Notes: generated by a model not told the origin, from the sequence alone. 64,000 bases of DNA from an uncultured Methanosarcinales archaeon (GCA_964564925.1 CAZMBY010000001.1:37929-101928); one strand, 5' to 3'. Counted from the first letter of the stretch, positions 31,695-64,000 are shown. Numbers and translations are program-made.

Positions 31695-31719
31695 AGGTAT
31701 AATGGAGTGAATATTTAGA

Positions 31720-32646: not shown

Positions 32647-32689
32647 AAACATAAGATTTTTATATGCATAAACAAAAAATTTTAACAAA

Positions 32690-33835: not shown

Positions 33836-33861
33836 ATTATTTATCAAAAGAGGTGTAGATT

Positions 33862-35541: not shown

Positions 35542-35542
35542 A

Positions 35543-36370: not shown

Positions 36371-36416
36371 CTTGCATGCGAGTTTTTCTCGCGTGCCACA
36401 GCTTCCATTAAGCACA

Positions 36417-37517
36417 ATGTTCAACCTCAAAAACATATTGAAGAAAAAAAGCGGTGCAGATAAGCAAGAAACTAGAATTGAGTTTTTCAAGAAAAAATTC
36501 AAGAAGGCCCAGGAAAAAAGGACATTATCAGCCCAAAGGAAGCAAAGAATCAGGGAGTATATAGAAAGAGCCGGTCTTGAAGCGAATCCACAAAAGCTTT
36601 CGAAGATTTTTTTTAATACTGCCATTATAATAAACCTTGCAATATCTGCCTATCTTATCTATTACTTCTCTGTCAATTATGGGATTGAGTGGAGCGCGAT
36701 TGTAACTTCTATGCTGGTCCTATGGATCTTTATCTTTATATTCCTGGTTTTTGCATTGTGGATTATATTCTACATAGCAGTGGATTTGAAGATTTTCAGG
36801 AGAAGGGTCGATTTGGAGGATGTCTTACCTGATTTCCTGCAGTTGACTGCCGCAAACATAAATGCAGGCATGACCATTGACAGGGCATTATGGTATTCTG
36901 TCAGGCCAAGATTTGGAGTGCTTGCCAAAGAGATAGAGATGGTTGCCAAGGAAACAATGAGCGGGGTCGATTTGAAGGTTGCATTGGACAAATTTGCTGC
37001 AAGGTATGACTCCGCAATTCTCAAGAGGTCTATCAGCATGATCAATGAAGGAATAGAAGCTGGCGGGCAAATAGGAGATTTGCTTAACAGGATAGCTGTC
37101 AATATCCAGGAGCAGAAATCAATGATGAATGAGATGTCTGCAAACGTCACAACTTATGTGATATTCATAACATTTGCAACAATAGCTGCCGCGCCCTTCC
37201 TGTTCGCCATGTCAGGAGTCTTAATAGGCGTGGTAAAGACGATAGGCACTTCATTGGGCTCAGCGACAACTGCGGCTGCAAGCGCCGGCGTGCCAATAAT
37301 GTTCCAAGGCACAGGCATATCTGAGTCAGATTTTAAGATTTTTTCCGTTGTATCGCTGATAATAACTTCATCATTCTCTGCCATGATGGTATCCACAATA
37401 AAAAAAGGGAACATAAAATCAGGGATAAAATACATACCCATCTTCATAATTGTAACTTTATCGATATATTTCATTGTGCAGGGAGTTTCACAGAAATTGT
37501 TTGTATTTTTTGTTTAA
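36417..37517 (+). CDS. FlaJ/TadC-like polytopic membrane platform protein (second gene)
   Basis: 'DFLQLTAANINAGMTIDRALWYSVRPRFGVLAKEIEMVAKETMSGVDLKVALDKFAARYDSAILKRSISMINEGIEAGGQIGDLLNRIA' T2SSF-like domain plus TM helices. The ORF track starts at 36288. That extension overlaps the upstream gene and a GCATGCGAG…CTCGC hairpin, so the Met at 36417 is preferred. Confidence 0.65.
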   Translation: MFNLKNILKKKSGADKQETRIEFFKKKFKKAQEKRTLSAQRKQRIREYIERAGLEANPQKLSKIFFNTAIIINLAISAYLIYYFSVNYGIEWSAIVTSMLVLWIFIFIFLVFALWIIFYIAVDLKIFRRRVDLEDVLPDFLQLTAANINAGMTIDRALWYSVRPRFGVLAKEIEMVAKETMSGVDLKVALDKFAARYDSAILKRSISMINEGIEAGGQIGDLLNRIAVNIQEQKSMMNEMSANVTTYVIFITFATIAAAPFLFAMSGVLIGVVKTIGTSLGSATTAAASAGVPIMFQGTGISESDFKIFSVVSLIITSSFSAMMVSTIKKGNIKSGIKYIPIFIIVTLSIYFIVQGVSQKLFVFFV

Positions 37518-38843: not shown

Positions 38844-39422
<579 letters not shown>

Positions 39423-49311: not shown

Positions 49312-52300
49312 TTGCACAATAACCCGCTCTTGAATCTCGTTTTTGCCATCGACTCAGCTGCAATGTATGGGATAATGGCATTTTTCTATCTGGAACCTCG
49401 AAAAATGCTAAAACAATGTCCGGATTGGCTTCGCATTTTGATGGCAAAACTACTTTTTGTGCAAAGCCTTTCTAACAAAAGCTTTTTAATGATGCGCCAT
49501 TTCCCTTCCAAAGGGTGTATTTTGTTTATGGAGTCAAAAGAAGACGAAGAAATTTCTATAAGTGCTAAGAAATCAAAGATTTCTGGCATCTCCGAAAATT
49601 CAGACGAGGAATTTTCGATAGATTTTGGCAAGATAAAGAAGTTTTTCAAGGGCAAGGGAGAGAAGGAGCCTGAAGATAGCCCAAAAACCGAGAAAACCGA
49701 AGATGAAGAGATTGCAGTAGATTTCAGCAAAGTCAAGAATTTCTTTAAATCTGGCGAAAAGGAAAGAGGAAGCGAGGATATAAACGTAGACTGGTCAAAA
49801 TTTGCTGATTTCTTTAAAACATATGGCATCGTATTAATTGCCTTGATTCCAATAATACTTTCAATCTATGTCAGAATGCAGGCTGATACCCTGCCATTCG
49901 CTGATGATTGGGCATCAAATAGCGTGTTCAACAACATCAGAAACCAGATAAGGAATAGCATAGACCAGCAATACCCAAATTTGCCAAGTGCAAACAAGGA
50001 TGCTTTGGTTGAAACAGAGATGCAGAATTTTATCAATCAGAACAAGCAGCAGATTGACCAGCAGGTGAAAGGGACATCAGACTACGTCAAGTCATTCTTC
50101 CAGGACGAGAATGGCAATAATTACATGCCAGACATTGATCCTTATTATTGGGTCAGGTATGCTGACAATATTGTCGATCATGGTTATCCTGGCGATGTCT
50201 TGGTTGAAGGGAAATCTTATGACAACAGGCAAGTAGCTCCAAAAGGAAGGTTTGTAACTGGCGACATGTTTCATTCATACTTCTTGGCATATTTTTACAA
50301 GTTCTTGCATTTATTTTCGCCAAGCCTGACTCTGATTCGCTCATCATTTTATGCTCCTGTATTTTTGTCGGCTTTGTGTGTCTTGCTTGTTTTCCTAATA
50401 GCAAGGAAAATTGCCGGAAACACAGGCGCTCTCATGGCGGGGTTGATAATGGCAGTAAATTCCGCATTCTTAGGAAGAACTATGTTTGGGCATGCTGACA
50501 ATGATGGGTGGGTTATCTTCTTTCCGCTGATCGTCACCTGGCTGTTCATTCAGACTATTGACGCCACAAGCATAGCCAAGGTCATTATTTCTGCTGCTCT
50601 GGCAGGTTTCTTCACAGGCTTGTTCACTTTAGCATGGAGCGGCTGGTGGTTCATTTTTGATTTTCTCCTCATTACTGTAGCAGTGACATTCCTATACCTA
50701 GTGCTTACAAACCTTCTGGACATCAGGAAAAATCTTAGATTCTTATTCCAGAATACTGTTATCAGGGATATAATAATTTTTGGCATTGTTTATTTCATTG
50801 CAACTGCAATGTTCACCACTTTCTTTTCTGGATGGGGCCAGTTCAGCAACAGCTTTCTTGGCCCTTTAAGCTTTAAGTCAATCAAAGAGCCGGTGAGCAG
50901 CGGCTCATTGTGGCCAAATGTATTGACCACAGTTGCAGAATTGAATGAAGGCTCCTTCAATGGCATTGCCAATTCAGTTGGAGGGTACCTATTCTTCTAC
51001 ATAAGCTTAATCGGATTGCTTTTGGCAGTCTCAAGAACAGAGGGCCTGAGGAAGTTTGATTTTTATTACAACGTTGCTGGATTTATTTATTATGCTGCAT
51101 TCCTGCAGCTTGTGAAAGCAGAAACTATAAACTCAATATATACCATAATGGCAGGAGTCCTGCTTCCAGTTGCGGTAAGGATGATTATTCTGATATACCA
51201 CAAAGACAGATCCTATGATTTCAAACTTTCCCTGTTGCTTTCGCTGTGGATTGTATCAACTATTTTCGCGAGCATAAAAGGAATTAGATTCACATTGCTT
51301 CTTGCTCCTGCATTCAGCGTTGCGTTTGGTGTTGCGCTTGGGAAGCTGTATATGTTTAGCTCAAAATTATTGAACAAAGAGCTGAAAATTAACAAGATTG
51401 TCGGCAACTCTGTCCTTATTTTATTGATATTGTCTTTGGTTTATGTGAATCCCACAAAGGCTGCCATAGGCGCTTCAAGTTCTGATCCGCCAATTGTCAA
51501 TGACGCTTGGTACTCTGCTTTGACCGCAATAAAGGAGGATTCAAAGCCAGATGCAATAATAACATCGTGGTGGGATTTTGGACATCATTTCAAGTCAATA
51601 ACTGACAGGAGGGTCACATTTGACGGAACAACTCAAACCTATCCACCGGCTCACTGGGTTGGCAAGCTGTTGATGTCGGACAATGAAAACCAATCTCTTG
51701 GAATTCTGAGAATGATGGATTGCAGCAGCAATGATGCCTATGTTTTGCTGCAAAAATTAGATGGCAACGACACTCACTTATCTATTAAGATAATAAATGA
51801 AATTGTAGGGCTTGACAAAAAAAGTGCCGAGAAAAAATTAATGGGCTATAAATTTAGTGATGAAAAAATCAAGGAGCTTCTTTCATATACCCATTGCGAT
51901 CCTGCAGAAGGCTACTTCATTGCCTCAGATGACATGATTGGAAAAAGCGGTGTTTGGGGCCATTTCGGCAGCTGGAATTTTGAAAGAGCTGACATATGGC
52001 AGAATGCAAGGAACATGGCTGAAGAAGACGCTGTCCAATATATGGCAGCCAAGTTTAACTATAGCAGGCAAAATGCGCAAAACCTATACGTTGAAATGCA
52101 GGAGATATTGGGCATAGATGACGCAAACAAACTTAACAGGAAGGCAAATGAATGGGTTGCTCCATGGCCGGGGTATGCAGGCACAATAAACTGTGCAAGG
52201 AATGGAGATGGTATTTTTGAATGCCCTCAACTGAGCGTTGGCAAGGACAATTCCGGCAGGGATGTATATGCCTCATTTTTCATAAATATGACCGGCTATG

Positions 52301-52701
52301 ACGTCTTTGGCAAGGTTGGCGGCACTGAGATAAGGGCAAATCCAGTTGCGTTCACCACAGAGGATGGCATTTACAAAAAACAATTTGACGGGAATACATT
52401 CGGCCTTGGGTTTACAGTAATTCCGGCAGGTGAAGACAGCGTCTTGGTTGTGATGTCCAGCCCGCAGCTTGTAGGCTCAATGTTCACGAGAATGTTTTAC
52501 ATGCAGGGGCATGGGCTTAAGTATTTTAAATTATTTAATCATCCTTCAAGAGGCTTGACAGGAACTGACATTTATGTTTACAAGGTTGATTGGGATGGAA
52601 AGAATGCGACTATTGTTGAACCCTATGTCGATAATTTGAGAAAACAAACCGAAGCAACAGCCATCATTCCTTCGGCAGAGCCTGCAGCAAACAGCTCCTA
52701 G
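49312..52701 (+). CDS. aglB: AglB/STT3 oligosaccharyltransferase
   Basis: Catalytic 'WWDFGHH' (WWDYG motif) at ~51567-51590. It has about 13 N-terminal TM helices and a large C-terminal soluble domain. The ORF-track N-terminus (49312-49527) lacks features; the start is probably the Met at 49528 (MESKEDEE…). Confidence 0.85.
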   Translation: MHNNPLLNLVFAIDSAAMYGIMAFFYLEPRKMLKQCPDWLRILMAKLLFVQSLSNKSFLMMRHFPSKGCILFMESKEDEEISISAKKSKISGISENSDEEFSIDFGKIKKFFKGKGEKEPEDSPKTEKTEDEEIAVDFSKVKNFFKSGEKERGSEDINVDWSKFADFFKTYGIVLIALIPIILSIYVRMQADTLPFADDWASNSVFNNIRNQIRNSIDQQYPNLPSANKDALVETEMQNFINQNKQQIDQQVKGTSDYVKSFFQDENGNNYMPDIDPYYWVRYADNIVDHGYPGDVLVEGKSYDNRQVAPKGRFVTGDMFHSYFLAYFYKFLHLFSPSLTLIRSSFYAPVFLSALCVLLVFLIARKIAGNTGALMAGLIMAVNSAFLGRTMFGHADNDGWVIFFPLIVTWLFIQTIDATSIAKVIISAALAGFFTGLFTLAWSGWWFIFDFLLITVAVTFLYLVLTNLLDIRKNLRFLFQNTVIRDIIIFGIVYFIATAMFTTFFSGWGQFSNSFLGPLSFKSIKEPVSSGSLWPNVLTTVAELNEGSFNGIANSVGGYLFFYISLIGLLLAVSRTEGLRKFDFYYNVAGFIYYAAFLQLVKAETINSIYTIMAGVLLPVAVRMIILIYHKDRSYDFKLSLLLSLWIVSTIFASIKGIRFTLLLAPAFSVAFGVALGKLYMFSSKLLNKELKINKIVGNSVLILLILSLVYVNPTKAAIGASSSDPPIVNDAWYSALTAIKEDSKPDAIITSWWDFGHHFKSITDRRVTFDGTTQTYPPAHWVGKLLMSDNENQSLGILRMMDCSSNDAYVLLQKLDGNDTHLSIKIINEIVGLDKKSAEKKLMGYKFSDEKIKELLSYTHCDPAEGYFIASDDMIGKSGVWGHFGSWNFERADIWQNARNMAEEDAVQYMAAKFNYSRQNAQNLYVEMQEILGIDDANKLNRKANEWVAPWPGYAGTINCARNGDGIFECPQLSVGKDNSGRDVYASFFINMTGYDVFGKVGGTEIRANPVAFTTEDGIYKKQFDGNTFGLGFTVIPAGEDSVLVVMSSPQLVGSMFTRMFYMQGHGLKYFKLFNHPSRGLTGTDIYVYKVDWDGKNATIVEPYVDNLRKQTEATAIIPSAEPAANSS

Positions 52702-53370
52702 ATGAAAATGAACAATGTCTGGGCCATAACACCGGCACACAACGAGGAAAGGGACATAGCCTTGATTATCAAGAAAACCAAGAGATATGCAGATGAAGTT
52801 GTGATTGTTGACGATGGGAGCATGGACAGGACAAGCATTTATGCAAAGAAGGCAGGTGCAATTGTTTTGAGGCACATTGTCAACCTGGGCAAGGGCGCTG
52901 CACTTAAAACAGGCTGTGACTATGCTATTAAGAAAGGTGCAAAATTGATTGTTGTGCTTGATGCTGATGCGCAGCACAACCCTGACAACATTCCAAGGTT
53001 TCTGGACAAATTGAAAAAATATAGCATCGTGTTTAGCTACAGGAAGCTAAGCAGGAAGATGCCGATTGTGCTGCGCTTCGGAAACTGGTTCATATCAGGC
53101 ATTGTCAGCCTGTTTTACGGCGTCAGCTTGAAGGACACCCAATGCGGATTCAGGGCATTCACCGCAGATGCGTACAAAAAAATAAGGTGGAATGCAAGCG
53201 ACTATTCAATGGAATCTGAGATGATAGCAAGGGCAGGAAAGCAAAACTTAAAATATGTGCAGATTCCAATTGAAACAATCTATTCCGACAGGTACAAGGG
53301 CACAACAATTGTAGACGGCATAAAAATTGTAATGAATATGCTTTGGTGGAGGCTGTTTAACACGAAATAA
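52702..53370 (+). CDS. GT2-family dolichyl-phosphate sugar transferase (DPM1/AglD-like)
   Basis: 'ITPAHNEERDI', 'VVIVDDGSMDRT', 'IVVLDADAQHNP' (DxD) and 'QCGFRAF' are hallmarks of GT2 Dol-P-Man/Glc synthases. Confidence 0.8.
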   Translation: MKMNNVWAITPAHNEERDIALIIKKTKRYADEVVIVDDGSMDRTSIYAKKAGAIVLRHIVNLGKGAALKTGCDYAIKKGAKLIVVLDADAQHNPDNIPRFLDKLKKYSIVFSYRKLSRKMPIVLRFGNWFISGIVSLFYGVSLKDTQCGFRAFTADAYKKIRWNASDYSMESEMIARAGKQNLKYVQIPIETIYSDRYKGTTIVDGIKIVMNMLWWRLFNTK

Positions 53371-53371
53371 A

Positions 53372-53713
53372 ATGGCGAATATCCTTGGAATTCAGATTGC
53401 AGGCTCGCTTTTTGGGCTGTTTATGATCTACTATTCTTTTTTGAACTACAAAAGGAAGCAGTTCACAACAAAAGAGTTTGGATTTTGGCTTCTGCTGTGG
53501 GTACTTTTTATTTTGGTTTCGCTGTTTCCGTTTTTGCTTGACCCTGTTGTCAAGCCCGCAGGGTTTTTGAGAGCGCTGGATTTGTTAACAATTACCGGCT
53601 TTATATTTCTGATAGGTGCTGTGTTTTATACATACACCCTGACAAGGAAAAATCAGAAGCAGCTTGAAGAGATTGTAAGAATCGTTGCAATGAAAAAAAG
53701 CAGGAAGAAGTAG
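53372..53713 (+). CDS. Small 3-TM membrane protein co-transcribed with the GT2 gene (DUF2304-like)
   Basis: 113 aa. 'IAGSLFGLFMIYYSF', 'FWLLLWVLFILVSLFPFLL', 'LLTITGFIFLIGAVFY'. Start is 2 nt after the GT2 stop. Confidence 0.5.
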   Translation: MANILGIQIAGSLFGLFMIYYSFLNYKRKQFTTKEFGFWLLLWVLFILVSLFPFLLDPVVKPAGFLRALDLLTITGFIFLIGAVFYTYTLTRKNQKQLEEIVRIVAMKKSRKK

Positions 53714-53825
53714 GCTAAGGACACCAATCCTTAATCATTATTAAATATCCATGCTTTTGCTGCCCTTGGAATGAATTCAGCAAAAAAAATAAATTGAAAT
53801 GCGCTTCATCTGTTTATTCTTAATC

Positions 53826-54494
53826 TTAGAAAAACTTGTACCGAGCAAAGGCAATAATAAATGTTATTATAATTGATAATGCCTGCAGGGAAAAAACAAC
53901 AGGATATTTTTTCCAGCTCATGCTCCTGTTGGGATATATTTCCTTGAATTTATTCTCAAAAAGCAGGATTGAGCCATGCAGTGTAAAAAGCATCAGAAAG
54001 CCTGCTAAAATAAAGCCAACTATCTGGCCCTGAAAAACCAATTCCTTGAAGTGCGCCCAATTGTCGACAAAAATTGCCCAGAAAATCCAGATAATAAATC
54101 CCAGCTCAAATACTGATATTTCATAATGCCGAATTGACCATGCAAATACAGCAGCCAGTACAATATAATATGGAAGGCTCATTAACAGGTCAGCAAAAAT
54201 GCTGCTTGTAGCAAACAAATAAGCTGTTTCTCCAGCTCTAATCTTATCCAAGTTGCTTAAGAAAGCGAGCACTTCAACAAATAAGCCGTTCAGGACCACA
54301 GCTATTCCGTAAGAAAGAAGCGGCCTTTTTATTTTTGGGATTATTGCCTTTTCAATTGGCGCATGGAATATGAAAAAAAGGCCATAGACAATTCCTGCCA
54401 AATATAATATTCTCTCCGAGCCTTTTGCCATGGCAATGCCAAAAAACAAGGAAAAGAGTATTGCAAAAATCCCGAATTTTTGGTATTTATCCAT
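53826..54494 (-). CDS. Polytopic membrane protein of unknown function (~6 TM)
   Basis: 222 aa, almost entirely hydrophobic helices (e.g. 'FGIFAILFSLFFGIAMA', 'IIWIFWAIFVDNWAHF'). Confidence 0.45.
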   Translation of the reverse strand: MDKYQKFGIFAILFSLFFGIAMAKGSERILYLAGIVYGLFFIFHAPIEKAIIPKIKRPLLSYGIAVVLNGLFVEVLAFLSNLDKIRAGETAYLFATSSIFADLLMSLPYYIVLAAVFAWSIRHYEISVFELGFIIWIFWAIFVDNWAHFKELVFQGQIVGFILAGFLMLFTLHGSILLFENKFKEIYPNRSMSWKKYPVVFSLQALSIIITFIIAFARYKFF

Positions 54495-54626
54495 TTTTTA
54501 TTTGTCAGAAAATTTTTGAACATTTTATGAATTTGGTTTTCATGCTTGATTCAGAAGCGCCTATGTGGGACGTCTGACTTCCAAGGCATTCTGTACGACG
54601 GAAAAATATGGCGTGATATGTGGAAC

Positions 54627-55910
54627 TCATCGCACCGGCTGCCACGAATATCTCTGTGGACCTATTCCCGGCACAGTAAAAAGCACATGACGATTTGTGC
54701 CGTCGAGATTTGTAGCCCCTACTCCAATCGGCTCAGGATTCTCCCCATAGATCGGAAGAGTTGGGTGAAGAATCATTTTACTGTCTGGGGACCATGCTGG
54801 ATCATCACCTTGCGTAAGCATTCTCTTGTTCGTTCCATCAGCATCCATCACCCAGATATGCCAGGTTGCCATGATATTGCGGTCGCGTGCTGTAGGCTGG
54901 CTAGTGCCTTTCCTGGTGGCTTCGCTCAATTCAAACATCTCTACACCTTGCCAATAAGCAATGTATTTTCCGTCTGGAGACCATGCGGGGACTTTTTGCT
55001 CGACAGGGGCACCAATCGAGTTATCATACGACGACTCGGTTAATGCAACTGGATTTTTACCGTCAGAATCCATCACCCAAATGCGGAATTTGTCCCAGTC
55101 GCGATCCGAAGCGAATGCAATGCGTTTCCCATCAGGTGACCAACTCGGAACTGCGTCAGAATCATTTCCAAAAGTAAGCTGTTTTTTATTAGAACCATCG
55201 GCATCAATTACAAAGATTTTGACATTCATGATATCCATTGGGTCTTTTTTTCCAGATGCCAGTTCCTGCTCCATGTCTGGAGTTATTAAGCCAGCAGTAT
55301 AAGCAATATGTTCGCCATCCGGAGACCAATCTGGGAGTAAACTCATACTACCGGAGCGCTTTTCGGTGATGGCCTTGTTATCAGAGCCATCAGCATTCAT
55401 CACGTGGAAGACAATTCCATTTTGGGCCTCTGATTGTGTCATATATGCGATTTTCTTTCCATCAGGAGACCACTTTGGCGCAACGTTGCCGTTGCCATCA
55501 TTTGTCAATTGCTTTCGGTTTGAGCCATCAGGAGAAACTGTAAAAATCTGATAGCGCCCTTTTTCATCTTGATAGGAAACTGCAATGAGTCCGCTTGCCG
55601 TGCCGTTTGCCGTTGATGTGCCAAACTGCTCCTGATTTTTTTTATCAAGGAGTAAAAGAACTCTGTCCAAAATATTTTCAGCGTCGTCATATTTTTTCGC
55701 TTTCAATAAAGGATCAAGCTCCTGAAGCTGATTTTGCACTTGTGTTGGGTCGCCTCCTGCAGAGATTAATTTTTCAATTCCTGCTTGGACTTTATTGGCT
55801 TTCTCCTGTATTCTCAATTGGGTTTCAGAAGGACGATTGATTAGAATGAAAATGGCTATTCCAATTATAAAAATAATTCCAATGACAATTAAAATAATTT
55901 TTGGTTTCAT
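54627..55910 (-). CDS. N-terminally membrane-anchored TolB-like (PD40) beta-propeller protein
   Basis: TM 'IILIVIGIIFIIGIAIFILI', a helical ~90-aa linker, then repeated 'PDWSPDGEHIAY', 'PSWSPDGKRIAF', 'PAWSPDGKYIAYW' and 'PKWSPDGKKIAY' blades. Confidence 0.75.
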   Translation of the reverse strand: MKPKIILIVIGIIFIIGIAIFILINRPSETQLRIQEKANKVQAGIEKLISAGGDPTQVQNQLQELDPLLKAKKYDDAENILDRVLLLLDKKNQEQFGTSTANGTASGLIAVSYQDEKGRYQIFTVSPDGSNRKQLTNDGNGNVAPKWSPDGKKIAYMTQSEAQNGIVFHVMNADGSDNKAITEKRSGSMSLLPDWSPDGEHIAYTAGLITPDMEQELASGKKDPMDIMNVKIFVIDADGSNKKQLTFGNDSDAVPSWSPDGKRIAFASDRDWDKFRIWVMDSDGKNPVALTESSYDNSIGAPVEQKVPAWSPDGKYIAYWQGVEMFELSEATRKGTSQPTARDRNIMATWHIWVMDADGTNKRMLTQGDDPAWSPDSKMILHPTLPIYGENPEPIGVGATNLDGTNRHVLFTVPGIGPQRYSWQPVR

Positions 55911-55914
55911 GTTT

Positions 55915-57489
55915 TTACAATTGACCGCTCAAGAATTTCTTGTACGCTTCAATAGCTTCCTTGCTTTTTGTCGCCTTTCCGTATGGCCCTCCTGAATCAA
56001 TTGGCTCCTGCCAGGCAAAGATATTGACAAGCGAAGCGCCATGCGAAAAAAAGTTTGAGAGATACTGTTCCCACGATAGGCCAACTGCTCCACTCCCAAC
56101 GGCAGTGTTCGTCCCTTCTGCCATTGCCCAGTGCGGATTACCCTGCCTTTCCAGCTCGTTGTAGATATTTGCAAAAGTCGCTTCAGTACCATTTACTTTC
56201 AAAATATTAGGATAAACACTAAACCCGGCCCGGGCGTTTGCAGTAAAGCCAACTGAAGGCACAGCATGCCCAACCATAGCTGAATATGAAAAATTAGTAA
56301 TATCTGTTTGCTTTTTAATCTGATCGATAAAGGAGGGAGTAAACAATTCTCTTGGAGGGAAGGCAATGTGGCTGTAAATCCTATCCTTTGGAATACCTGA
56401 TAAAAATAAACTATTCGTCCATAAATCAATCCAATTATTGAGAACTTCTTCCAATGCCTTGTCGAAATCAGCAGGCGGGTTTGAGGCGCTGTATCCTGAG
56501 TTTGTTAGCGAACAGTAGCCTATCCTCTTTTTCACAATTTTCAGATTATTCGCTGCATCGTCATTCTTTCCAATATAGCTCGGGTCAGGAAGATGAGTCT
56601 CCCAGCCGGCTATGACCCCGGCAAAAAGAGATTCCTTGTGTTTTGCTACAAGCCCATCTATTCCTTTTTTTATTTCTGCTCCGATGACATCCTTGGCAAT
56701 GCGCCTGATTTCTTGGCGAAGTGTCGGGCTTGAATAGCACATCTGAGGAGCAAGTTTTATATTAATCCAGCCAACAAAGCGCTGGGGATGAATCGTTCCA
56801 TCCCAATCAGTCCATTCCACATTTTGTGGATCGCTCCACAAATCCTTTCGGTTAATCCAAAACATCGAATCGTCAATGTGAAACGCAACTGCCACATTTT
56901 TCTCCTCGGCAATTTTGAATGATTCTCGAATCATAGTACGCAATTCCTCATCGGTGTGGTCAAGCGCCAAAGGCCCAATCGAAACTCCAAGCTGGCGCGT
57001 CTTTCCATCTCCGCGATTATTATTAACTGCCTTAAGAATATCATCAATATTATTTCTTATGTCTTTTCCATCAAAAGGCTGTGTTTTTCCTTCAGGGCTT
57101 GGCGCATATGTAAAAAGCTGGAAAATGAGATATTGTATTTCATCGCTTTTAATACTTGGAAATTGAGAGTTAGTTTGTGTAAAATTTTTATTGATATCGA
57201 TTTCTTTTTCGCTTTCAAGCATTTCAATTGCCTTGTCTAATACCGCTTCAGCTTCTTTATATTTTCCAGATTTCATCAGCGGATCAATTTCCTGAAGAAT
57301 CGCTGAAATTGGAGATGGATTTTTTCCTTCACTTACCCATTTTTCCATGCCTTTTTGTACTTGTTCTGCTTTTTTCGGAAAGCTTTCTGGAGGATGATTT
57401 GAAAAAATTAAAAAAGCAACCACAGAAATAATCAAAACTCCGATAACTATAAAAACAATTTTTGTTTTCATCAGGTTTTTATCGCACAA
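55915..57489 (-). CDS. Membrane-anchored protein: same N-terminal anchor+linker as 54627..55910, fused to a ~400-aa conserved domain also found at the C-terminus of 60120..63560
   Basis: N-terminal 'MKTKIVFIVIGVLIISVVAFLIF…AEQVQKGMEKWVSEG…LQEIDPLMKSGKYKEAEAVLDKAIEMLE' parallels the neighbour's N-terminus. C-terminal domain motifs 'GPLALDHTDEELRTMIRESFKIAEEKNVAVAFHIDDSMFW', 'VEWTDWDG' and 'GWETHLPDP' match the 1146-aa protein. Fold unknown (possibly glycosidase-like). Confidence 0.7.
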   Translation of the reverse strand: MCDKNLMKTKIVFIVIGVLIISVVAFLIFSNHPPESFPKKAEQVQKGMEKWVSEGKNPSPISAILQEIDPLMKSGKYKEAEAVLDKAIEMLESEKEIDINKNFTQTNSQFPSIKSDEIQYLIFQLFTYAPSPEGKTQPFDGKDIRNNIDDILKAVNNNRGDGKTRQLGVSIGPLALDHTDEELRTMIRESFKIAEEKNVAVAFHIDDSMFWINRKDLWSDPQNVEWTDWDGTIHPQRFVGWINIKLAPQMCYSSPTLRQEIRRIAKDVIGAEIKKGIDGLVAKHKESLFAGVIAGWETHLPDPSYIGKNDDAANNLKIVKKRIGYCSLTNSGYSASNPPADFDKALEEVLNNWIDLWTNSLFLSGIPKDRIYSHIAFPPRELFTPSFIDQIKKQTDITNFSYSAMVGHAVPSVGFTANARAGFSVYPNILKVNGTEATFANIYNELERQGNPHWAMAEGTNTAVGSGAVGLSWEQYLSNFFSHGASLVNIFAWQEPIDSGGPYGKATKSKEAIEAYKKFLSGQL

Positions 57490-58963
57490 TCACAGACACA
57501 GTCGTTTTCATCATATTTCCAGCGGCATCAAACGCCTTGGCTTTCAGCTTATATGCCTTGGCGACCTTCGGAGTCCATGTGCATTTGTATGGTGGAGCTG
57601 AAACGGTGCAAAGAAGTTCTGTATCAGCGAGGAATTCCACATGTGTAACTCCGATGTTATCCGATGCAGTTGCTTTGATGATAGTTGATATTCCTTTCTT
57701 AATGACGGCTTTATTCAACGGTTTGGTTATGGAGACGGAAGGAATCTGGTTGTCTGGTGGAAAATTATTACATAGAGGGAAATTGAAAGTTTTTCCTGTG
57801 GGAGGGATTGCAACGGCGATGGAGCCAACTGGATACCAATAAGCCGAACGTTTAGTGCCCGCAAAGTAAAGAAGCGGCTTACATGAAGATTCATCAAGGA
57901 AAAACGAAGGCGTCCCATGAAACCACGAGTCCCAATCCTGGCCGGATAGTCGAGTGATAGGAATAAACTGTGCATCCCATAAACTGTTTTTATCCCGCGA
58001 ACGGCCCTGGATTCCGAAGTATGTTTCCGCAGACCCACCGAAACCGTTTTGAAGTACTACGACTTGCATTTCGTCATACATTAACTTCGGAGTGTTTAAG
58101 TCGGCCGTGCCGACGGTATCCATCTGCTCGGTCCGAATGGGTGATGACTCTGGTAACTGATCTAATCTTGTTACAGGCGTGCTTTGAAATACTTTTGAAA
58201 AAACATCAAACCATAATCTTGTCTCGCCCAGACTAATCCATTGCAGGTCTGGTCGCGAATACCCAGTATGATTCGCATCACACGCGCTCAAACCATTTAG
58301 ATATTTATCATTTCGGAAGAGCAGATTATAATTCTTATCAAAGGAGGCAATGCCAATATTTCCGCAACTATCTCCATTTGGAATTTCCGGATGCCACTCG
58401 GCAGCGGTATAGAGAACCCACAAATTTTTTTCACCGGAAGTTGCAGAATCTTGCACAAATAGCGAGGGATCGTTCACCTGATGGATGATACCGGTAGGCC
58501 ATTGAGTCGAACTTGTCTCACATGCCTTGTGATCGGGCCGGAGAATGAATTTTTTGAATGTCCAATTAAGACCATCACTCGACTCTGCAAGCCCAATCGC
58601 ATCCTGTGAGCCAGGACCACATGGAATAACACCGGCACCGAACATCATGACATACTTGCCGTTGTACTTTACGACGCTTGGTGAATAGATAGTTACGATT
58701 CCCAGTTGAGTTCCCAATGGCTCTAATCCAGTAGTCGGAATATCTTCAATTCCAAAAATCTTCTTATATGTCCAATTTACATTTTTTAATTGATTGATGA
58801 TTGACTCTGTCGGTAGCGGAAGTTTATTAGCCCTTCCAACTAAATTGCGTGAGTTTTCAGAATAAATGAAACTCATTGAATCATCTTGAAAGTCATGAAA
58901 TGAGAAAAAAGTGAAAATTGTAGCTGAGAATAAAACCAGAAAAAGAGAAGTTAAATTTTTCAT
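57479..58963 (-). CDS. Secreted five-bladed beta-propeller glycoside-hydrolase-like protein (GH43/GH32 clan-like) with C-terminal Ig-like domain
   Basis: Signal 'LFLVLFSATIFTFFSF'. 'VTIYSPSVVKYNGKYVMMFGA' and 'QVNDPSLF' resemble GH43-type propeller motifs. The C-terminal ~90 aa are Big/Ig-like ('..ATASDNIGVTHVEFLADTELLCTVSAPPYKCTWTP'). Confidence 0.5.
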   Translation of the reverse strand: MKNLTSLFLVLFSATIFTFFSFHDFQDDSMSFIYSENSRNLVGRANKLPLPTESIINQLKNVNWTYKKIFGIEDIPTTGLEPLGTQLGIVTIYSPSVVKYNGKYVMMFGAGVIPCGPGSQDAIGLAESSDGLNWTFKKFILRPDHKACETSSTQWPTGIIHQVNDPSLFVQDSATSGEKNLWVLYTAAEWHPEIPNGDSCGNIGIASFDKNYNLLFRNDKYLNGLSACDANHTGYSRPDLQWISLGETRLWFDVFSKVFQSTPVTRLDQLPESSPIRTEQMDTVGTADLNTPKLMYDEMQVVVLQNGFGGSAETYFGIQGRSRDKNSLWDAQFIPITRLSGQDWDSWFHGTPSFFLDESSCKPLLYFAGTKRSAYWYPVGSIAVAIPPTGKTFNFPLCNNFPPDNQIPSVSITKPLNKAVIKKGISTIIKATASDNIGVTHVEFLADTELLCTVSAPPYKCTWTPKVAKAYKLKAKAFDAAGNMMKTTVSVIVR

Positions 58964-59027
58964 TTCGTAAATTAATCCTTATACCCATTTAATAAATTTT
59001 TGGTTTCGTGTGGTTTTCCAAAAAAGA

Positions 59028-60107
59028 TTATTGGAGCATCTTTGCTCTCCACGGTCTTCTGCCGGCTCCATATGCGAACGGCAGGAGCACTCTTGGGTTG
59101 CTGCCGTCGGCATTCATTATCCATGTTTGAGCGCCGCTATTGTTCTTATAGGGGTTGGGGTTGCGATTGGATTCAAATATAATGCTCTTTCCGTCTGGGG
59201 ACCAGCTAGGATTATCACTATTAATATTAACCTGGGTCTCGAAGGTAATCTGTGTGCGGCCTGTGCCGTCGGCATTTATCACCCAAATATTCCCGTACTC
59301 TGTCTCGTACCCAGACCAAAAAGCAATCTTTTTTCCGTCCGGAGACCATGCCGGAGCATTGGCATCAGGAGCGGTAGGGTTTTCTGGAAACGTGAGCTGT
59401 GTCTGGTTCGTTCCGTCGGCATTCATCACCCATATCTCGGAGTTGCCGCTCTGGGTTGACGCGTAAGCTATTCTCTTTCCATCGGGGGAAAATGAAGAAT
59501 GGATGCTCCACCTTATGGGGCCATGAGTCCTCGTGAATGAACTCTTGGTAGTGGTCGTCAGCTGACGCTTATCAGTACCATCACTATTCATGACCACAAT
59601 TTCAGGATGGCCGCTTTGAATGGAAGCATACATGACCTTTGAACCATCAGGGGAGAATGCAGGCGAAATTCCACCATCAGGGGGAAACGTCAACTGCTTT
59701 TTATTTCTGCCATCTGCATCCATTGTCCATATCTGCGGATTTTCTCCTTGCTTCTGCATATAAACGATTCTGTTGCCATCATAAGACCAAGCAGGCAATC
59801 CGTTCATTCCTCCGTTCGTCAGATTGCGCCTACCGCTTCCATCAATCTGTATTACGAATATATCTGACGTACTACTATCACCGGGATCCGCAGAAAATGA
59901 ACCACTTCCCATGACTAACTCTCCAGAGGAGTATTGCAAATCTTTCAGTGAACTATTTTTTTCTGTTGGCTCGGGTCGCTGGGATATTGGGAACGTACCA
60001 GAACCAGGCGACATGGCTGGAGAATTCAAAAGCAATAAATACCCTGCGCCAAGAAGCATGAGAACTCCGATTACAATAAATACGATCTTCATGGAATTGG
60101 CTGCCAC
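59028..60107 (-). CDS. Membrane-anchored TolB-like (PD40) beta-propeller protein
   Basis: TM 'IVFIVIGVLMLLGAGYLLLL', then 'PAWSYDGNRIVYMQ', 'PAFSPDGSKVMYAS', 'SSFSPDGKRIAYAS', 'PAWSPDGKKIAFWS' and 'PSWSPDGKSIIFES'. Confidence 0.75.
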   Translation of the reverse strand: MAANSMKIVFIVIGVLMLLGAGYLLLLNSPAMSPGSGTFPISQRPEPTEKNSSLKDLQYSSGELVMGSGSFSADPGDSSTSDIFVIQIDGSGRRNLTNGGMNGLPAWSYDGNRIVYMQKQGENPQIWTMDADGRNKKQLTFPPDGGISPAFSPDGSKVMYASIQSGHPEIVVMNSDGTDKRQLTTTTKSSFTRTHGPIRWSIHSSFSPDGKRIAYASTQSGNSEIWVMNADGTNQTQLTFPENPTAPDANAPAWSPDGKKIAFWSGYETEYGNIWVINADGTGRTQITFETQVNINSDNPSWSPDGKSIIFESNRNPNPYKNNSGAQTWIMNADGSNPRVLLPFAYGAGRRPWRAKMLQ

Positions 60108-60119
60108 GCGGCATCTCCT

Positions 60120-63100
60120 CTACTCGGAAAGATTCTTGCCATTTAGGAATTTTTTATACGCCTTGATGGAATCTGGCCCTTCTGTCGCAATGCGGAAAGG
60201 ATCGTTCTTTGTTGCATTGCCGCCGATGCCCCATGCAAATATATTAACCAAAGTTGCTCCATGCCCGAACATCCTCGCAAGATAAGATTCCATGGAGCTT
60301 CGCTGATAATCCATATTTGTTCCCTCGGCCATAGCCCATGATGGATTGCCGCTGATGCCGAAAAGCTCATAGAGTTCATCAATCCCACCAGTAGAATACA
60401 AACTATAACCCGGATGCAGGTATTCGCTTATTACAACTTCCGGAGGTGCAGACCAAACCATTTGTGAATATGTTTCATTATATTTTAATTCACCTTTTGA
60501 TTTTTTATCATTATATGCGACTTTAGGAAAGAATGCCACATGGCCATAAACCTTTTCCTTTTGGACACCTCCTGCTATAAGGTTTTTTGCCCAAAGCTCG
60601 ATAAATTCATGGACGATTTTCTCTCGTTCCTTATCAAGATCAGGAGGTGGGTTTGTCTTGTTGAAGCCGCGATTAGTGAATCCACAATAACCGAGAACCT
60701 TGTCTTCGGCATCAAAATCCCTCCCCATACCAGTTTCCCATCCGGTAATGACTCCTGCAAGTAAATCCTGTTTCCCTTTTTTTGTAAGTCGATTAACACC
60801 ATCCGCTATTTCTTGGCCAATGACATCGCGCGCAAGCCGCTTCACTTCCTGCTTGACAGCTTTGCTGTTAAAACACATCTGAGGCCCGATTTTAACGGGT
60901 TGAGGGCCCCAAGCGAGTTTTAGCCCAGTGCTTGGCTTGCCATTCCAATTGCGCCATTCGACGTTTTGGGAGTTGCTCCAGAGGTCGCTCCTTCTAACCC
61001 AGAATTTAGAATCGTCAATATGAAAGCCGATAGATACATTTTTCTCGAGCGCAATAGCAAATGAATCCCTTATAATCTGCCTCATTTGCTCATCAGTCTG
61101 ATCGAGCGCTAAAGGCCCCATGATGAATCCAAGTTTTCTTTCATTGTTTCCTTTTGTGCCAATGGTGTCAATGACGTTTTGAATCATTCCAGCCATAGCG
61201 GTTTTTGATGGAGGGGCTTTCATGGGTGATTCACCGATAGGAACTGCTGGATCATGGTCGGAAGTGAAGATTTGAAAAGTAAGGTATTGGATTGCATTGC
61301 TAGTAGGAGGAGCAACATCTTTGGGTATCCACTTAGGAGCGTTCGCTTGCGCTTTGATTCTGGTTGGAATTTGCTTCGCCCCGTCCAAACTAACCACTGA
61401 TGCGAATGCGCCTTGGTCAGTAATTTCCGTGAAGAGCGCATCACTACCATTTAGGTTCGGAGCTATTGTAAGAAATGCGGGTTTTGTAAGACGGCGTAGT
61501 CCTGTGGTATCAATATTGATGATCCAGAGATTATTTTTATACGGGCCGGTTCCGGGAATCGTACTCGGCTGGTCGGAATTCCAGCGGCTGAATACGACTC
61601 TCTGATTGTCAGATGAGACCTCTGGATCATGGACGCTTGCGACTCCAAGAGGGCCTGCGTTGTCGATGACCATTCGAGGATTAGTACCATCGGAATTCAT
61701 AACCCACAGCTGGTCATAATTCTTGCCCGCAGGAACCCGAAGAAATGCAACCAAGCTGCCATCTTCAGAGACGCCAGGGTCTCCTTCGCGCGAGTTAGGT
61801 GTATCGGTAAGTTGGGTCAGGCCGGTGCCATCGTATTTAATCTTGTAGAGTTCAATAGCATAGGCATCGTCCGGGCTCAGATCGCGAGATCCAGCAAAGT
61901 ATATGAAGCCATGCTGATCAAAACCAACCCCGCCATCTCCTGCAGCGGCGAACTCCGGTACAAGCTGCGCTTCTGTCCCCTTTTCAAGGTCAAAAAGGAA
62001 CATCCGAGCGAGACCGGCATCGTTGCCAAGCAGAGGACGGGGATGGTCATCTATAACCACATATCGGTGATCATATGAGACGGCAACATGCTCAATATTC
62101 CTCGGATTTTCAAAAGTGATTTGAGCTAAATTTCCCCCACTTCTATTCATAGTATAGATAAGACCATTAGAGTGGTACACGATATCAGCATTATCCGGAA
62201 TTTTGCCGAGTTTGACTGGTGTGGGGAGGGAAATACTAATTTCAACAGTATTTTTTACCGGCTGCCATGAAAGCCCGTCAATAGTCCCTTTTGCCCTGAA
62301 AAGAAGCCGTTTATCTGAGCCGTTTGGGCCAACGGCTACAACAGAAATTGCATCTCCAGGCTCCAAGCCACAACTGCGTTCAACAGGATCCCCCTTTTCA
62401 TCAGCGCAGCCAGAATGAATGATTGTGCTTCCATCAGGGGACCATTTAGGGTCATCGCCTGTGCCAAGTTTTCTTTGGTTGCTGCCGTCAGCGTTCATAA
62501 TCCAGACATCGCGTGGCAGGCCACGCCTGGGATCAGTGGCTTCAACGCCAGCCCAATACGCTATGTATTTGCCGTCAGGAGACCACGCAGGAACCTTCTG
62601 TTCAATATCTGCTTGCAGTTTTTCGTCGTAGTATGCCCTCGTGAGAAGCTTTGGATTCTTTCCCTTTGCATTCATAACCCAAATCTGATACCTGCCACCA
62701 TCCCGATTTGAGGTGAAAGCAATTTTTGTTCCATCTGGAGACCAAGTCGGAATATTGTCATCAAAGGGCCCTAGCGTAATCTGCCGACGGTTTGAGCCAT
62801 TTGAATTCATTACCCAGATTTTTAGGGCTTGAGATCCGGTATTGCTTGAATAGGCGATTTTCTGGCCATCAGGGGACCACGAAGGCGCCAGAGCACCGAC
62901 ACCAGCAAGTGTCTCAGTTAACTGTTTCTTATTATCGCCATTAGAGTCCATGACCCAAATTTGCATACCTCCGGATTGACGTGAAACGTAAGCAATTTTT
63001 TTGCCATCAGGAGACCATGCAGGCATCCAACTATGGTTATTGTCACTTGTCAGCTGTTTCCAACTTGACCCATTAGAGGTAACACTAAATATCTGAACTT

Positions 63101-63560
63101 GACCTTGCGCATCTTTATCTGCTATTGTTATCAGCCCGTTCGAGTTTTTTGATGCCTGATTAACATTCAAAACTCCAAGGCTATTTGATTGCTGGCAACA
63201 TTTGCTTGATGAATCAGCAAAAGTGCTGCAGCGGACAGTTCCTCCCGTATTTCCTGCTGTGCAGTCAAAATTGGCTTTTGTTCCATTAAATCCGATAAAT
63301 TTGCATGTTCCTGAAGGTATTTCTGGAGAAATGCAATCCACAACCTTGCCAAAATTGCATGATATAGTATACTTTTCACCGTTTGATACATGCGAGGCAT
63401 TCATACTTCCGCCAATGTAAGACAGGGATTTGCATTTGGCAGCTGAGCTGGCTTTTCCTGACAAGTCACTGTTTTCTGTTAGTAAGCTGCATCCAATCAA
63501 AGCAAGAGAAAATGAAACTAAAAAAAGAAATATTTTTGATCTCTTCATTTGAAATCTCAT
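60120..63560 (-). CDS. 1146-aa lipoprotein/secreted fusion: Cys-rich N-terminal module + TolB-like beta-propeller(s) + C-terminal ~400-aa domain paralogous to 55915..57489
   Basis: Signal plus 'LIGCS' lipobox-like. Blades 'PAWSPDGKKIAYVS', 'PSWSPDGQKIAYSS', 'PTWSPDGTKIAFTS', 'PAWSPDGKYIAYWAG', 'PKWSPDGSTIIHSG'. C-terminal 'GPLALDQTDEQMRQIIRDSFAIALEKNVSIGFHIDDSKFW…VEWRNWNG…GWETGM'. Confidence 0.8.
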   Translation of the reverse strand: MRFQMKRSKIFLFLVSFSLALIGCSLLTENSDLSGKASSAAKCKSLSYIGGSMNASHVSNGEKYTISCNFGKVVDCISPEIPSGTCKFIGFNGTKANFDCTAGNTGGTVRCSTFADSSSKCCQQSNSLGVLNVNQASKNSNGLITIADKDAQGQVQIFSVTSNGSSWKQLTSDNNHSWMPAWSPDGKKIAYVSRQSGGMQIWVMDSNGDNKKQLTETLAGVGALAPSWSPDGQKIAYSSNTGSQALKIWVMNSNGSNRRQITLGPFDDNIPTWSPDGTKIAFTSNRDGGRYQIWVMNAKGKNPKLLTRAYYDEKLQADIEQKVPAWSPDGKYIAYWAGVEATDPRRGLPRDVWIMNADGSNQRKLGTGDDPKWSPDGSTIIHSGCADEKGDPVERSCGLEPGDAISVVAVGPNGSDKRLLFRAKGTIDGLSWQPVKNTVEISISLPTPVKLGKIPDNADIVYHSNGLIYTMNRSGGNLAQITFENPRNIEHVAVSYDHRYVVIDDHPRPLLGNDAGLARMFLFDLEKGTEAQLVPEFAAAGDGGVGFDQHGFIYFAGSRDLSPDDAYAIELYKIKYDGTGLTQLTDTPNSREGDPGVSEDGSLVAFLRVPAGKNYDQLWVMNSDGTNPRMVIDNAGPLGVASVHDPEVSSDNQRVVFSRWNSDQPSTIPGTGPYKNNLWIINIDTTGLRRLTKPAFLTIAPNLNGSDALFTEITDQGAFASVVSLDGAKQIPTRIKAQANAPKWIPKDVAPPTSNAIQYLTFQIFTSDHDPAVPIGESPMKAPPSKTAMAGMIQNVIDTIGTKGNNERKLGFIMGPLALDQTDEQMRQIIRDSFAIALEKNVSIGFHIDDSKFWVRRSDLWSNSQNVEWRNWNGKPSTGLKLAWGPQPVKIGPQMCFNSKAVKQEVKRLARDVIGQEIADGVNRLTKKGKQDLLAGVITGWETGMGRDFDAEDKVLGYCGFTNRGFNKTNPPPDLDKEREKIVHEFIELWAKNLIAGGVQKEKVYGHVAFFPKVAYNDKKSKGELKYNETYSQMVWSAPPEVVISEYLHPGYSLYSTGGIDELYELFGISGNPSWAMAEGTNMDYQRSSMESYLARMFGHGATLVNIFAWGIGGNATKNDPFRIATEGPDSIKAYKKFLNGKNLSE

Positions 63561-63799
63561 TTTTCTTTATCTGAGTAGCAGATTAATATAGTTTTGGTTT
63601 TTATTTTTACTTTAATGTTTATGTTAAACGGCAGAAATAGAGGCAAGGAACATCAATCTATTTTATTGTGGCAATATTTAAATATTGTATATAGTTAGCA
63701 ACTTCCATGTTTATGCTAATAAAACTTGTAGATAGGTACATAGGGGGCTTTATCTGTAATTTTCTTGGATTTTTCAATAGGAAGAAGCAGATTGAAGGG

Positions 63800-64000
63800 A
63801 TGGAATTTGGCAAGATACTGGTTGTGCAGCTTTGGGGAATTGGGGAAACAATCCTGACTTTGCCGGCCATTGAAGCCCTGAGGAAGAAGTATCCCAAAGC
63901 AGAGATAAATGTGCTTGCAACTTCAAGAAACAAAGATGTTTTCTTTAAAAATGGAAACTTGGATAAGATTGTGGAAATGAAAGTGAATCCATTCTCTGTA
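63800..64000 (+). CDS. Partial (N-terminal) GT9-family glycosyltransferase (heptosyltransferase-like)
   Basis: 'KILVVQLWGIGETILTLPAIEALRKKYPKAEINVLA' matches the GT9 N-terminal pattern (ILvirlgalGDvilTlPalraLr…P.A.I). The ORF is truncated by the window end. Confidence 0.5.
   Translation, partial: MEFGKILVVQLWGIGETILTLPAIEALRKKYPKAEINVLATSRNKDVFFKNGNLDKIVEMKVNPFSV

Follow-up and report, generated by a model that had tools for sequence, protein, structure and literature searches.

A 64,000-nucleotide stretch of DNA (the window) from an uncultured Methanosarcinales archaeon (GCA_964564925.1 CAZMBY010000001.1:37929-101928) carries five co-directional open reading frames (ORFs) on its minus strand between positions 54627 and 63560, in the order E-D-C-B-A. 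We consider it probable that this operon-like block of about 9 kb occupies a variable spot in the N-glycosylation (AglB) locus of its host, that it derives from a PD40-rich surface-protein locus of the type found in bacteria of the Candidate Phyla Radiation (CPR), and that it encodes a predicted surface apparatus for binding and cleaving glycans. An earlier note on this DNA had proposed the horizontal acquisition of a bacterial envelope-associated module. This proposal is supported by the absence of the block from the corresponding site in relatives, by its deviant synonymous codons and by the placement of its nearest homologues in CPR bacteria.

Insertion site and codon use

The host is a Woesearchaeota (DPANN) archaeon. 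All named homologues of its AglB at 51-61% identity belong to Candidatus Woesearchaeota, the closest homologues reach 62-72% identity, and weaker matches come from Nanoarchaeia, Nanoarchaeota and Aenigmarchaeota. Besides AglB/STT3, the archaeal genes of the window include those for a geranylgeranyl-reductase family protein, a FlaI-like and an ArlJ-like protein. On the left flank of the block, AglB, the family 2 glycosyltransferase (GT2) and DUF2304 are 62-68%, 73-79% and 73-87% identical to their counterparts on five Woesearchaeota contigs (L081-L085), where they stand in the same gene order. Three of these contigs (L081-L083), which come from independent samples and have AglB at 68% identity, encode a 1411-aa protein, a 683-aa protein, geranylgeranyl reductase, AglB, GT2 and DUF2304, followed by a 213-bp spacer and a family 9 glycosyltransferase (GT9), and they match the window gene for gene (geranylgeranyl reductase 75%, GT2 79%, DUF2304 87%). 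In the window, 9,993 bp (53714-63706) replace the spacer of these relatives (L081 14134-14348). Neither A-E nor a 222-aa membrane protein encoded in the same interval has a homologue on L081-L085.

The right flank is likewise native. All 98 aa of the GT9 fragment align with 379-aa PF01075 (Glyco_transf_9) proteins, at 72% identity in L081-L083 and 64% in L084; taken alone, the fragment, at only 98 aa, has no Pfam match and scores 27.5 bits against the heptosyltransferase III model, whose cut-off is 170. The earlier note was thus probably right to read a GT9 start on the plus strand but counted it as part of the island, whereas the conserved synteny of DUF2304 and GT9 indicates that GT9 is a native neighbour of AglB-GT2-DUF2304 and lies outside the acquired block. 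The corresponding spot in L084 (GCA_016187465.1; 13859-18827), from a less closely related Woesearchaeote, holds genes for a methyltransferase, an epimerase, a GT2 and a 601-aa protein. With 213 bp in three relatives, four other genes in L084 and the block here, the DUF2304-GT9 interval is therefore variable within the phylum. Scanning the window for tRNAs and Rfam families gave no hits, the repeat search returned PD40 coding repeats and chance pairs but no att-like flanking repeats, and neither the junctions nor the E-GT9 intergenic region could be aligned to the 213-bp spacer of the relatives, so that no usable boundary emerged. The gene for the 222-aa protein has host-like codon use (z=+1.65), and its product forms a singleton cluster without a Pfam or NCBIfam match.

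Within this interval, the five genes are set apart by their choice of synonymous codons. When codon log-likelihoods are computed under a host model conditioned on the amino acid, the five genes score z=-5.3, -3.2, -8.3, -6.0 and -8.0, while 28 of the 35 other genes fall within |z|<=1.65 and the exceptions include values of +1.98, +2.76 and +3.22. The shift is most readily seen in arginine, where AGA and AGG (AGR) make up 42 of 104 codons in the block and 451 of 516 in the host (40% versus 87%; Fisher p=7e-23) and CGN codons 60% and 13%, and in isoleucine, where ATA accounts for 41 of 211 codons versus 607 of 1325 (p=8e-14). Codon use in the block is intermediate between that of the host and that of a CPR contig discussed below (L004), with correlations of r=0.83 between block and host, 0.78 between block and L004 and 0.60 between host and L004.

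Bulk composition is less telling. The earlier note described the island as visibly GC-richer than the rest of the window, and this holds overall (0.442 for 54546-63600 versus 0.397) and for the half at 58991-63600, whose GC of 0.458 lies above the 0.428 that is the maximum of any 2-kb window elsewhere, but not for the half at 54.6-59 kb, which is no higher than other parts of the window. The excess resides in codon positions 1 and 2, GC at third positions (GC3) being 0.41 in the block and 0.42 in the host. It thus reflects amino-acid content, the block being enriched in Gly, Pro, Trp and Asp, and GC content as a signal of transfer was rejected after this split by codon position. Tetranucleotide composition, which the earlier note had proposed to examine together with GC in sliding windows, does depart from the rest of the window (r=0.54-0.62, versus 0.80-0.94 for most windows), but as a sole marker of the island it was set aside as unspecific, since a giant repeat-rich gene at 5-12.5 kb deviates as well. 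Raised GC at this locus is thus a matter of amino-acid composition, and the diagnostic signal lies in synonymous codon choice and synteny.

The giant gene belongs to a 3871-aa ORF on the plus strand (615-12230; r=0.65-0.71). It has almost no domain matches, its codons are chosen as in the host, and its product resembles giant surface proteins that have been reported from DPANN archaea. We further note that one gene outside the block, and only one, is strongly atypical in its synonymous codons (38844-39422, plus strand; z=-4.1, AGR 0.5 of Arg codons). It encodes a 192-aa DUF4256 protein (303 bits) and may represent a second, separate bacterial acquisition.

Propeller proteins of the block and their relatives

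The five genes follow each other at short intergenic gaps (12, 64, 7 and 4 bp), and each product has a single strongly hydrophobic 19-residue window that is always N-terminal (aa 6-24 in A), which confirms the five minus-strand genes with single N-terminal anchors described in the earlier note. The coordinate given there for the start of the island, 54546, is that of a spurious plus-strand ORF and has to be replaced by 54627, where the first gene ends. The probable start of B is the ATG at 57471, which is also where the 518-aa database version begins. The promoter of the block presumably lies in the divergent region between E and GT9. Coordinates of all features are collected in Table 1.

Table 1. 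Genes, domains and flanking features of the block, with positions counted from the first nucleotide of the window
Feature	Position	Strand	Description
AglB/STT3 oligosaccharyltransferase	49312-52701	+	Pfam STT3; native left flank
GT2	52702-53370	+	Pfam Glycos_transf_2; native left flank
DUF2304	53372-53713	+	Pfam DUF2304; native left flank
222-aa multi-pass membrane protein	53826-54494	-	within the inserted interval; on the strand of A and 132 bp downstream of it
Gene A	54627-55910	-	427 aa; N-terminal transmembrane anchor, helical stalk of ~70 aa, PD40 beta-propeller (aa ~100-427)
Gene B	55915-57489	-	transmembrane anchor, helical stalk, domain X (55918-57177)
Gene C	57479-58963	-	494 aa; signal/anchor, GH130-like five-bladed beta-propeller (aa ~60-400), Big_7 Ig-like domain (aa 408-474)
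Gene D	59028-60107	-	359 aa; transmembrane anchor and PD40 beta-propeller; probable start ATG 60092
Gene E	60120-63560	-	1146 aa; lipobox-like signal, Cys-rich region (aa 25-135), two propeller regions, domain X
E, propeller 1 (PD40)	62253-63155	-	aa 136-436
E, second region	61311-62240	-	aa 440-750; weak PD40-like match
E, domain X	60135-61301	-	aa 754-1142
E-GT9 intergenic region	63561-63706		divergent, AT-rich
GT9, 5' end	63707-64000	+	cut by the window end; native right flank

Three of the five proteins carry PD40 repeats (Pfam PF07676, gathering cut-off 20.9 bits, several repeats each), with 80 bits in A, 120 in D, where the match spans five stretches, and 132 in E; no PD40 repeats were found by Pfam in B or C. 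The description of the proteins as PD40 propellers on transmembrane anchors accordingly fits A and D, applies to E with a different N-terminus, and fails for B, which has an anchor but no PD40. The modules are shared within the block. The first ~100 residues of A and B, comprising the transmembrane anchor and the helical stalk, are 33% identical, the propeller of A is 41% identical to residues 136-436 of E, and residues 115-523 of B are 40% identical to residues 754-1142 of E, a region that we call domain X. A and B together thus resemble a split version of E. The first 24 residues of E (63489-63560) read as a bacterial-style lipoprotein signal ending in L-I-G-C, the lipobox being recognised by eye, while the Sungbacteria homologue of E has a plain transmembrane anchor; E may be anchored by a lipid.

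The earlier note called the propellers TolB-type, which we regard as an over-call: A, D and E are PD40 propellers, not TolB. TIGR02800 (TolB) is indeed their best NCBIfam match, with 138.5, 178 and 158 bits for A, D and E, and both TolB and these proteins build a beta-propeller from PD40 repeats. The equivalog cut-off of that model is, however, 343 bits, no Pfam match to the TolB N-terminal domain is found in A, D or E at E<=0.01, and the N-termini consist instead of a transmembrane anchor with a helical stalk or of a Cys-rich region. No tolQ, tolR, tolA or pal gene occurs in the island or its flanks, the neighbours being AglB, GT2, DUF2304, the unannotated membrane protein and GT9. PD40 repeats alone are not a bacterial hallmark. 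A role of the propellers as periplasmic components of envelope integrity, in the manner of the Tol-Pal system, would be suggested by the TIGR02800 matches, but besides the sub-cut-off scores, the missing N-terminal domain and the missing Tol-Pal neighbours, the propellers of relatives are fused or adjacent to a predicted glycosidase, and the host is an archaeon with a different cell envelope; we know of no outer membrane or peptidoglycan in its lineage. We consider such a role scarcely credible.

The nearest relatives of the propellers are found in CPR bacteria. A 9.2-kb contig of Candidatus Sungbacteria from Rifle groundwater (L004, GC 0.51) encodes a single 1135-aa protein made up of a transmembrane anchor, a propeller, domain X and a second propeller. 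Its first propeller is 74% identical to propeller 1 of E (70% at the nucleotide level), its domain X is 57% identical to that of B, and its residues 816-1134 are 82% identical to the propeller of A (77% over 955 nucleotides). In this protein the end of domain X runs directly into the A-like propeller, which is the same order as B followed by A in the block. A second CPR contig from Rifle groundwater (L087, 5.6 kb, GC 0.55) carries four tandem PD40 genes and shares 82-87% nucleotide identity with L004 in the propeller-coding stretches. One of its products is a fusion of a propeller with Big_7, 73% identical to propeller 1 of E and 76.5% to the Ig-like tail of C, and a further gene is 79% identical to A. 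The protein encoded on a 68.6-kb Lloydbacteria contig (L015) is 69% identical to A. PD40 also flanks domain X or is fused to it in L016, L026 (Saccharibacteria), L055 and L010. D is 63% identical to its homologue in L001, a second archaeal contig, and 55% to that in the bacterial L016, where the gene likewise precedes an X gene. The search for bacterial best matches protein by protein, which the earlier note had suggested, gave CPR loci at 73-82% amino-acid identity in which the domains are combined in another way, and for domain X the predominantly bacterial distribution described below.

Domain X itself may have more than one bacterial affinity. The copy in E is nearest to Anaerolineae sequences (48-51%), and in a neighbour-joining tree the copies of B and E each fall among bacterial sequences, in different clades. 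The simple acquisition of a Sungbacteria-type fused gene was rejected on these grounds, since domain X of E belongs to another subfamily and the catalytic domain of C has only rare relatives elsewhere.

Codon use offers a clue as to which way the genes moved. In the CPR loci, AGR is about 14% in homologues and neighbouring genes alike, at a GC3 of 0.52-0.60, so that the genes look native there. An independent archaeal assembly in ENA (L001, 1-6460) gives the opposite picture: it encodes a D homologue (63% aa identity) directly followed by a B homologue (88% aa, 87% nucleotide identity), with C and A absent, and AGR is 0.53 in the B homologue and 0.25 in the D homologue versus 0.84-0.91 in their neighbours. 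Downstream of them lie genes whose signal peptides, judged by eye, are of the archaeal pilin type; these genes are only 25-40% identical to those of the window locus at 31.7-34.3 kb. The residence of B and D homologues amid genes with archaeal codons supports a real presence of the module in archaea and suggests that it occupies different sites in different Woesearchaeota, perhaps moving within the phylum. From the codon match in CPR, the mismatch in both archaeal contigs and the intermediate codon use of the block, we infer that transfer more probably ran from CPR bacteria to the archaeon.

The pilus-like locus of the window is an archaeal type-IV-pilus or archaellum-like locus on the plus strand (27043-37517). 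It includes genes for a FlaI-like ATPase (33862-35541) and an ArlJ-like membrane protein (36288-37517), and several unannotated genes stand upstream of these two, among them one for a 1161-aa protein.

Predicted glycosidases: domain X and protein C

Domain X (about 410 aa), common to B and the C-terminus of E, was overlooked in the earlier note. It has no Pfam match even at E<=1 across 35 family members and no NCBIfam match, and a sequence search of the PDB with the X profile found no relative. An AlphaFold2 (AF2) model built on the 35-sequence alignment is nevertheless confident (predicted local distance difference test (pLDDT) score 94.3, predicted template modelling score 0.93) and shows eight strand-helix units, that is, a (beta/alpha)8 barrel. 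Against the PDB, Foldseek places the GH14 beta-amylase first among the glycoside hydrolase (GH) families (E=1.7e-8, TM-score 0.54), followed by GH42, GH66, GH5, GH164 and GH35, all with a probability of 1.00, TM-scores of about 0.5 and a sequence identity of about 10%.

Two glutamates are invariant in the 35 sequences, E193 (in GWET), which stands three residues after the strand at 185-190, and E354 (in AEGTN), within the strand at 350-355, strands being assigned by DSSP on the AF2 model. Four further residues, H100, H270, Y322 and W389, vary little or not at all and are located at or after strands 3, 5, 6 and 8. A glutamate after strand 4 together with one at strand 7 is the layout of the "4/7" retaining glycosidases of clan GH-A. 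We infer that domain X is a retaining, clan-GH-A-like glycoside hydrolase in which the glutamate after strand 4 would act as acid/base and that at strand 7 as nucleophile, and that it would serve as an extracellular polysaccharide hydrolase. The candidate catalytic residues are Glu297 and Glu458 in B and Glu942 and Glu1079 in E. Domain X resembles clan GH-A (GH5, GH42, GH35, GH164) and the GH14 fold in its predicted (beta/alpha)8 barrel, these being its best structural matches, and clan GH-A in its pair of invariant glutamates. It differs from clan GH-A in having Trp-Glu instead of Asn-Glu at strand 4, and from both in its low sequence identity of about 10%, TM-scores of only about 0.5 and the missing match in Pfam, NCBIfam and the PDB.

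The family is large and mostly bacterial. More than 335 homologues were collected, of which all named ones are bacterial, and a scan of one genome per GTDB species yielded 77 X loci, 75 of them bacterial and spread over many phyla. The remaining two (L022, L029) lie on contigs of one metagenome-assembled genome (MAG) labelled 'uncultured Methanosarcinales archaeon' and are 41-43% identical to B. With B as query, metagenome contigs gave no close match. In about 8-11 bacterial loci, domain X stands beside GT4, GT2, Wzy_C, Wzz/GNVR and Wzx-type genes, that is, in Wzx/Wzy exopolysaccharide clusters, and this placement inside such clusters was seen in Proteobacteria and some other bacteria (L017, L040, L041 and about eight others). 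Other family members are fused to type IX secretion system sorting tails, to PG_binding_1 or to a polysaccharide deacetylase domain. Glycosidases encoded inside exopolysaccharide gene clusters are known from PslG (GH39) and BcsZ (GH8). Domain X is comparable in its bacterial neighbourhoods, but it is not a sequence member of GH39 or GH8, and its partners in CPR and the archaeon are PD40 propellers rather than a polysaccharide synthesis cluster.

Protein C combines two domains. Its Ig-like tail matches Big_7 in Pfam with 58 bits, and its AF2 model (pLDDT 86.6) is all-beta and contains a five-bladed propeller, for which Foldseek returns GH130 mannoside phosphorylases and hydrolases as the best matches (5ay9, 5a7v, 3wau; 5ay9 with E=3e-10 and TM-score 0.52), followed by GH117, GH62 and GH43. 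In Pfam, C matches no GH model. Among 31 members of the C family, however, nine have a weak match to PF04041 (GH130; best 5e-8) and only one relative a match to GH43 (PF04616; E=0.026). The earlier note had described C as a GH43-like glycosidase with an Ig-like tail. The tail stands, whereas GH43 holds at the level of fold only, a fold that C shares with GH130, GH43, GH62 and GH117 alike, and at the family level the assignment leans to GH130. At the level of the modelled fold, GH130-like thus appears to be the better label, for a protein that differs from GH130 in matching no GH model and in belonging to a very rare family.

Indeed, only 48 cluster representatives of the C family were found at E<=1e-10 among 1.84e9 proteins, and a word-indexed search gave two relatives of the catalytic domain, both in other contexts. 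One of these, 37% identical, is encoded on a low-GC contig (0.34; L003 10001-11308) in an archaeal-looking context of TruB, a PF04013 RNA methyltransferase and a class-II tRNA synthetase. Such a setting hints that the C-type propeller family, unlike the rest of the island, may circulate in DPANN archaea.

Origin, rival explanations and significance

We propose that the block descends from a locus rich in PD40-propeller surface proteins in CPR bacteria (Parcubacteria, Sungbacteria-like), that it would have been acquired across domains and then rearranged at the level of domains by splitting and re-fusing, and that its codon use would afterwards have shifted partway towards that of the host. The products A-E would be displayed on the outer face of the membrane through their N-terminal segments, with A and B raised on helical stalks of about 70 aa. 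The PD40 propellers of A, D and E may serve as binding platforms for a ligand, and the two X domains together with C may cleave glycans. Possible targets include exopolysaccharide, cell-wall glycans of neighbour or host cells, and the archaeon's own surface glycans. That PD40 and domain X are repeatedly fused or adjacent in CPR argues for a joint action of the two. An action on the archaeon's own glycans would be compatible with the location in the AglB locus, while the exopolysaccharide clusters around bacterial X genes, together with the proposed episymbiotic lifestyle (PMC8204110), would make a foreign polysaccharide the more attractive target.

Other explanations of the block were weighed against this origin. 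An assembly or binning artefact, in which 54.6-63.6 kb would be a bacterial (CPR) piece misjoined into an archaeal contig, could be suspected in a genome that is a metagenome assembly on one 104-kb contig, the nearest relatives of the block being bacterial and its codon use atypical. Both flanks, however, are native and syntenic with relatives, so that a chimeric join would need two exact misjoins. GC3 in the block is host-like (0.41 versus 0.42) and not that of the CPR loci (0.52-0.60), at the nucleotide level no CPR locus comes closer than 70-77% identity, and the independent assembly L001 has D and B homologues beside pilus-like genes with archaeal codon use. An artefact is thus exceedingly improbable, and the misjoined contig that the earlier note had raised as an alternative is effectively excluded by the native synteny on both sides. 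It is also very unlikely that the genes are native, vertically inherited archaeal surface genes that were lost in relatives and owe their composition to PD40 or amino-acid content or to expression. Such a history would agree with the occurrence of PD40 proteins in many archaea, with a GC excess confined to codon positions 1 and 2 at host-like GC3, and with a DUF2304-GT9 site that varies among Woesearchaeota, as the four other genes of L084 illustrate. Yet the deviation concerns synonymous codons conditioned on the amino acid (Arg CGN 60% versus 13%, p=7e-23) and extends to B and C, which have no PD40 repeats, and protein identities of 73-82% to CPR are far above those of cross-domain vertical descent. 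Somewhat less remote, though still unlikely, is a transfer in the reverse direction, from Woesearchaeota to CPR, or an independent acquisition from a third, unsampled donor. Close homologues are known from only a handful of CPR loci, two of them on short contigs, and the mosaic of identities (57-82%) would allow more than one source. The CPR homologues, however, share the codon use of their neighbours (AGR ~0.14) while both archaeal contigs deviate, PD40 is paired with X in several lineages, both of CPR and of other bacteria, domain X is overwhelmingly bacterial, and archaeal relatives lack the block at this site.

Several observations also count against an acquisition from CPR bacteria and the function predicted for it. 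No marks of insertion (integrase, transposase, tRNA or flanking direct repeats) accompany the block. Its atypical codon use could stem in part from expression level or from the repetitive PD40 sequence. Identity to the CPR loci is uneven, at 82% and 74% for the propellers and 57% for domain X of B, with domain X of E in another subfamily, so not everything can be accounted for by one simple transfer. The neighbour-joining tree carries no support values, and the taxonomic labels of L004 and L087, both short fragments from MAGs or metagenomes, depend on binning. As to function, the catalytic residues of domain X were placed by sequence invariance and DSSP strand positions, not by superposition.

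RuBisCO is a known case of lateral gene transfer between CPR and DPANN (Jaffe et al., 2019; PMC6389311), and among the protein families of bacterial type described in DPANN are large extracellular murein-transglycosylase proteins from Woesearchaeota (Castelle et al., 2021; PMC8204110). The present locus has the same partners (CPR or other bacteria and DPANN), its relatives come from the same type of habitat (the Rifle groundwater contigs L004 and L087), and its products are likewise extracellular and possibly related to interaction between cells. It differs from those cases in its cargo of PD40 propellers, an unannotated TIM-barrel domain and a GH130-like propeller, in an insertion site that is pinned between two native genes, and in genes that appear split and re-fused at the domain level. 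The locus thus most likely represents another, not unprecedented, case of cross-domain transfer, with an unusually well-defined insertion site, donor-like loci and a cargo that includes two uncharacterised families of predicted glycosidases.

A more far-reaching reading is that the PD40-X pairing is a previously unrecognised surface apparatus with which ultra-small episymbionts, both CPR and DPANN, bind and harvest glycans, that these two groups share and exchange it and use it for attaching to, or feeding on, the polysaccharides of host or neighbour cells, and that domain X founds a new GH family; we regard this as a tentative and rather doubtful extension of the acquisition from CPR proposed above. 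With native flanks and donor-like loci of up to 82% protein identity, the insertion, the splitting and re-fusing of domains and the partial shift in codon use would be readable from the sequence itself. Domain X, as a large, mostly bacterial family with a confident glycosidase-like model and a conserved pair of glutamates, offers enzymologists a concrete target and may prove to be a new CAZy family. A cargo consisting entirely of predicted surface proteins would be in line with a common set of tools, in CPR bacteria and DPANN archaea, for a life of scavenging while attached to surfaces.

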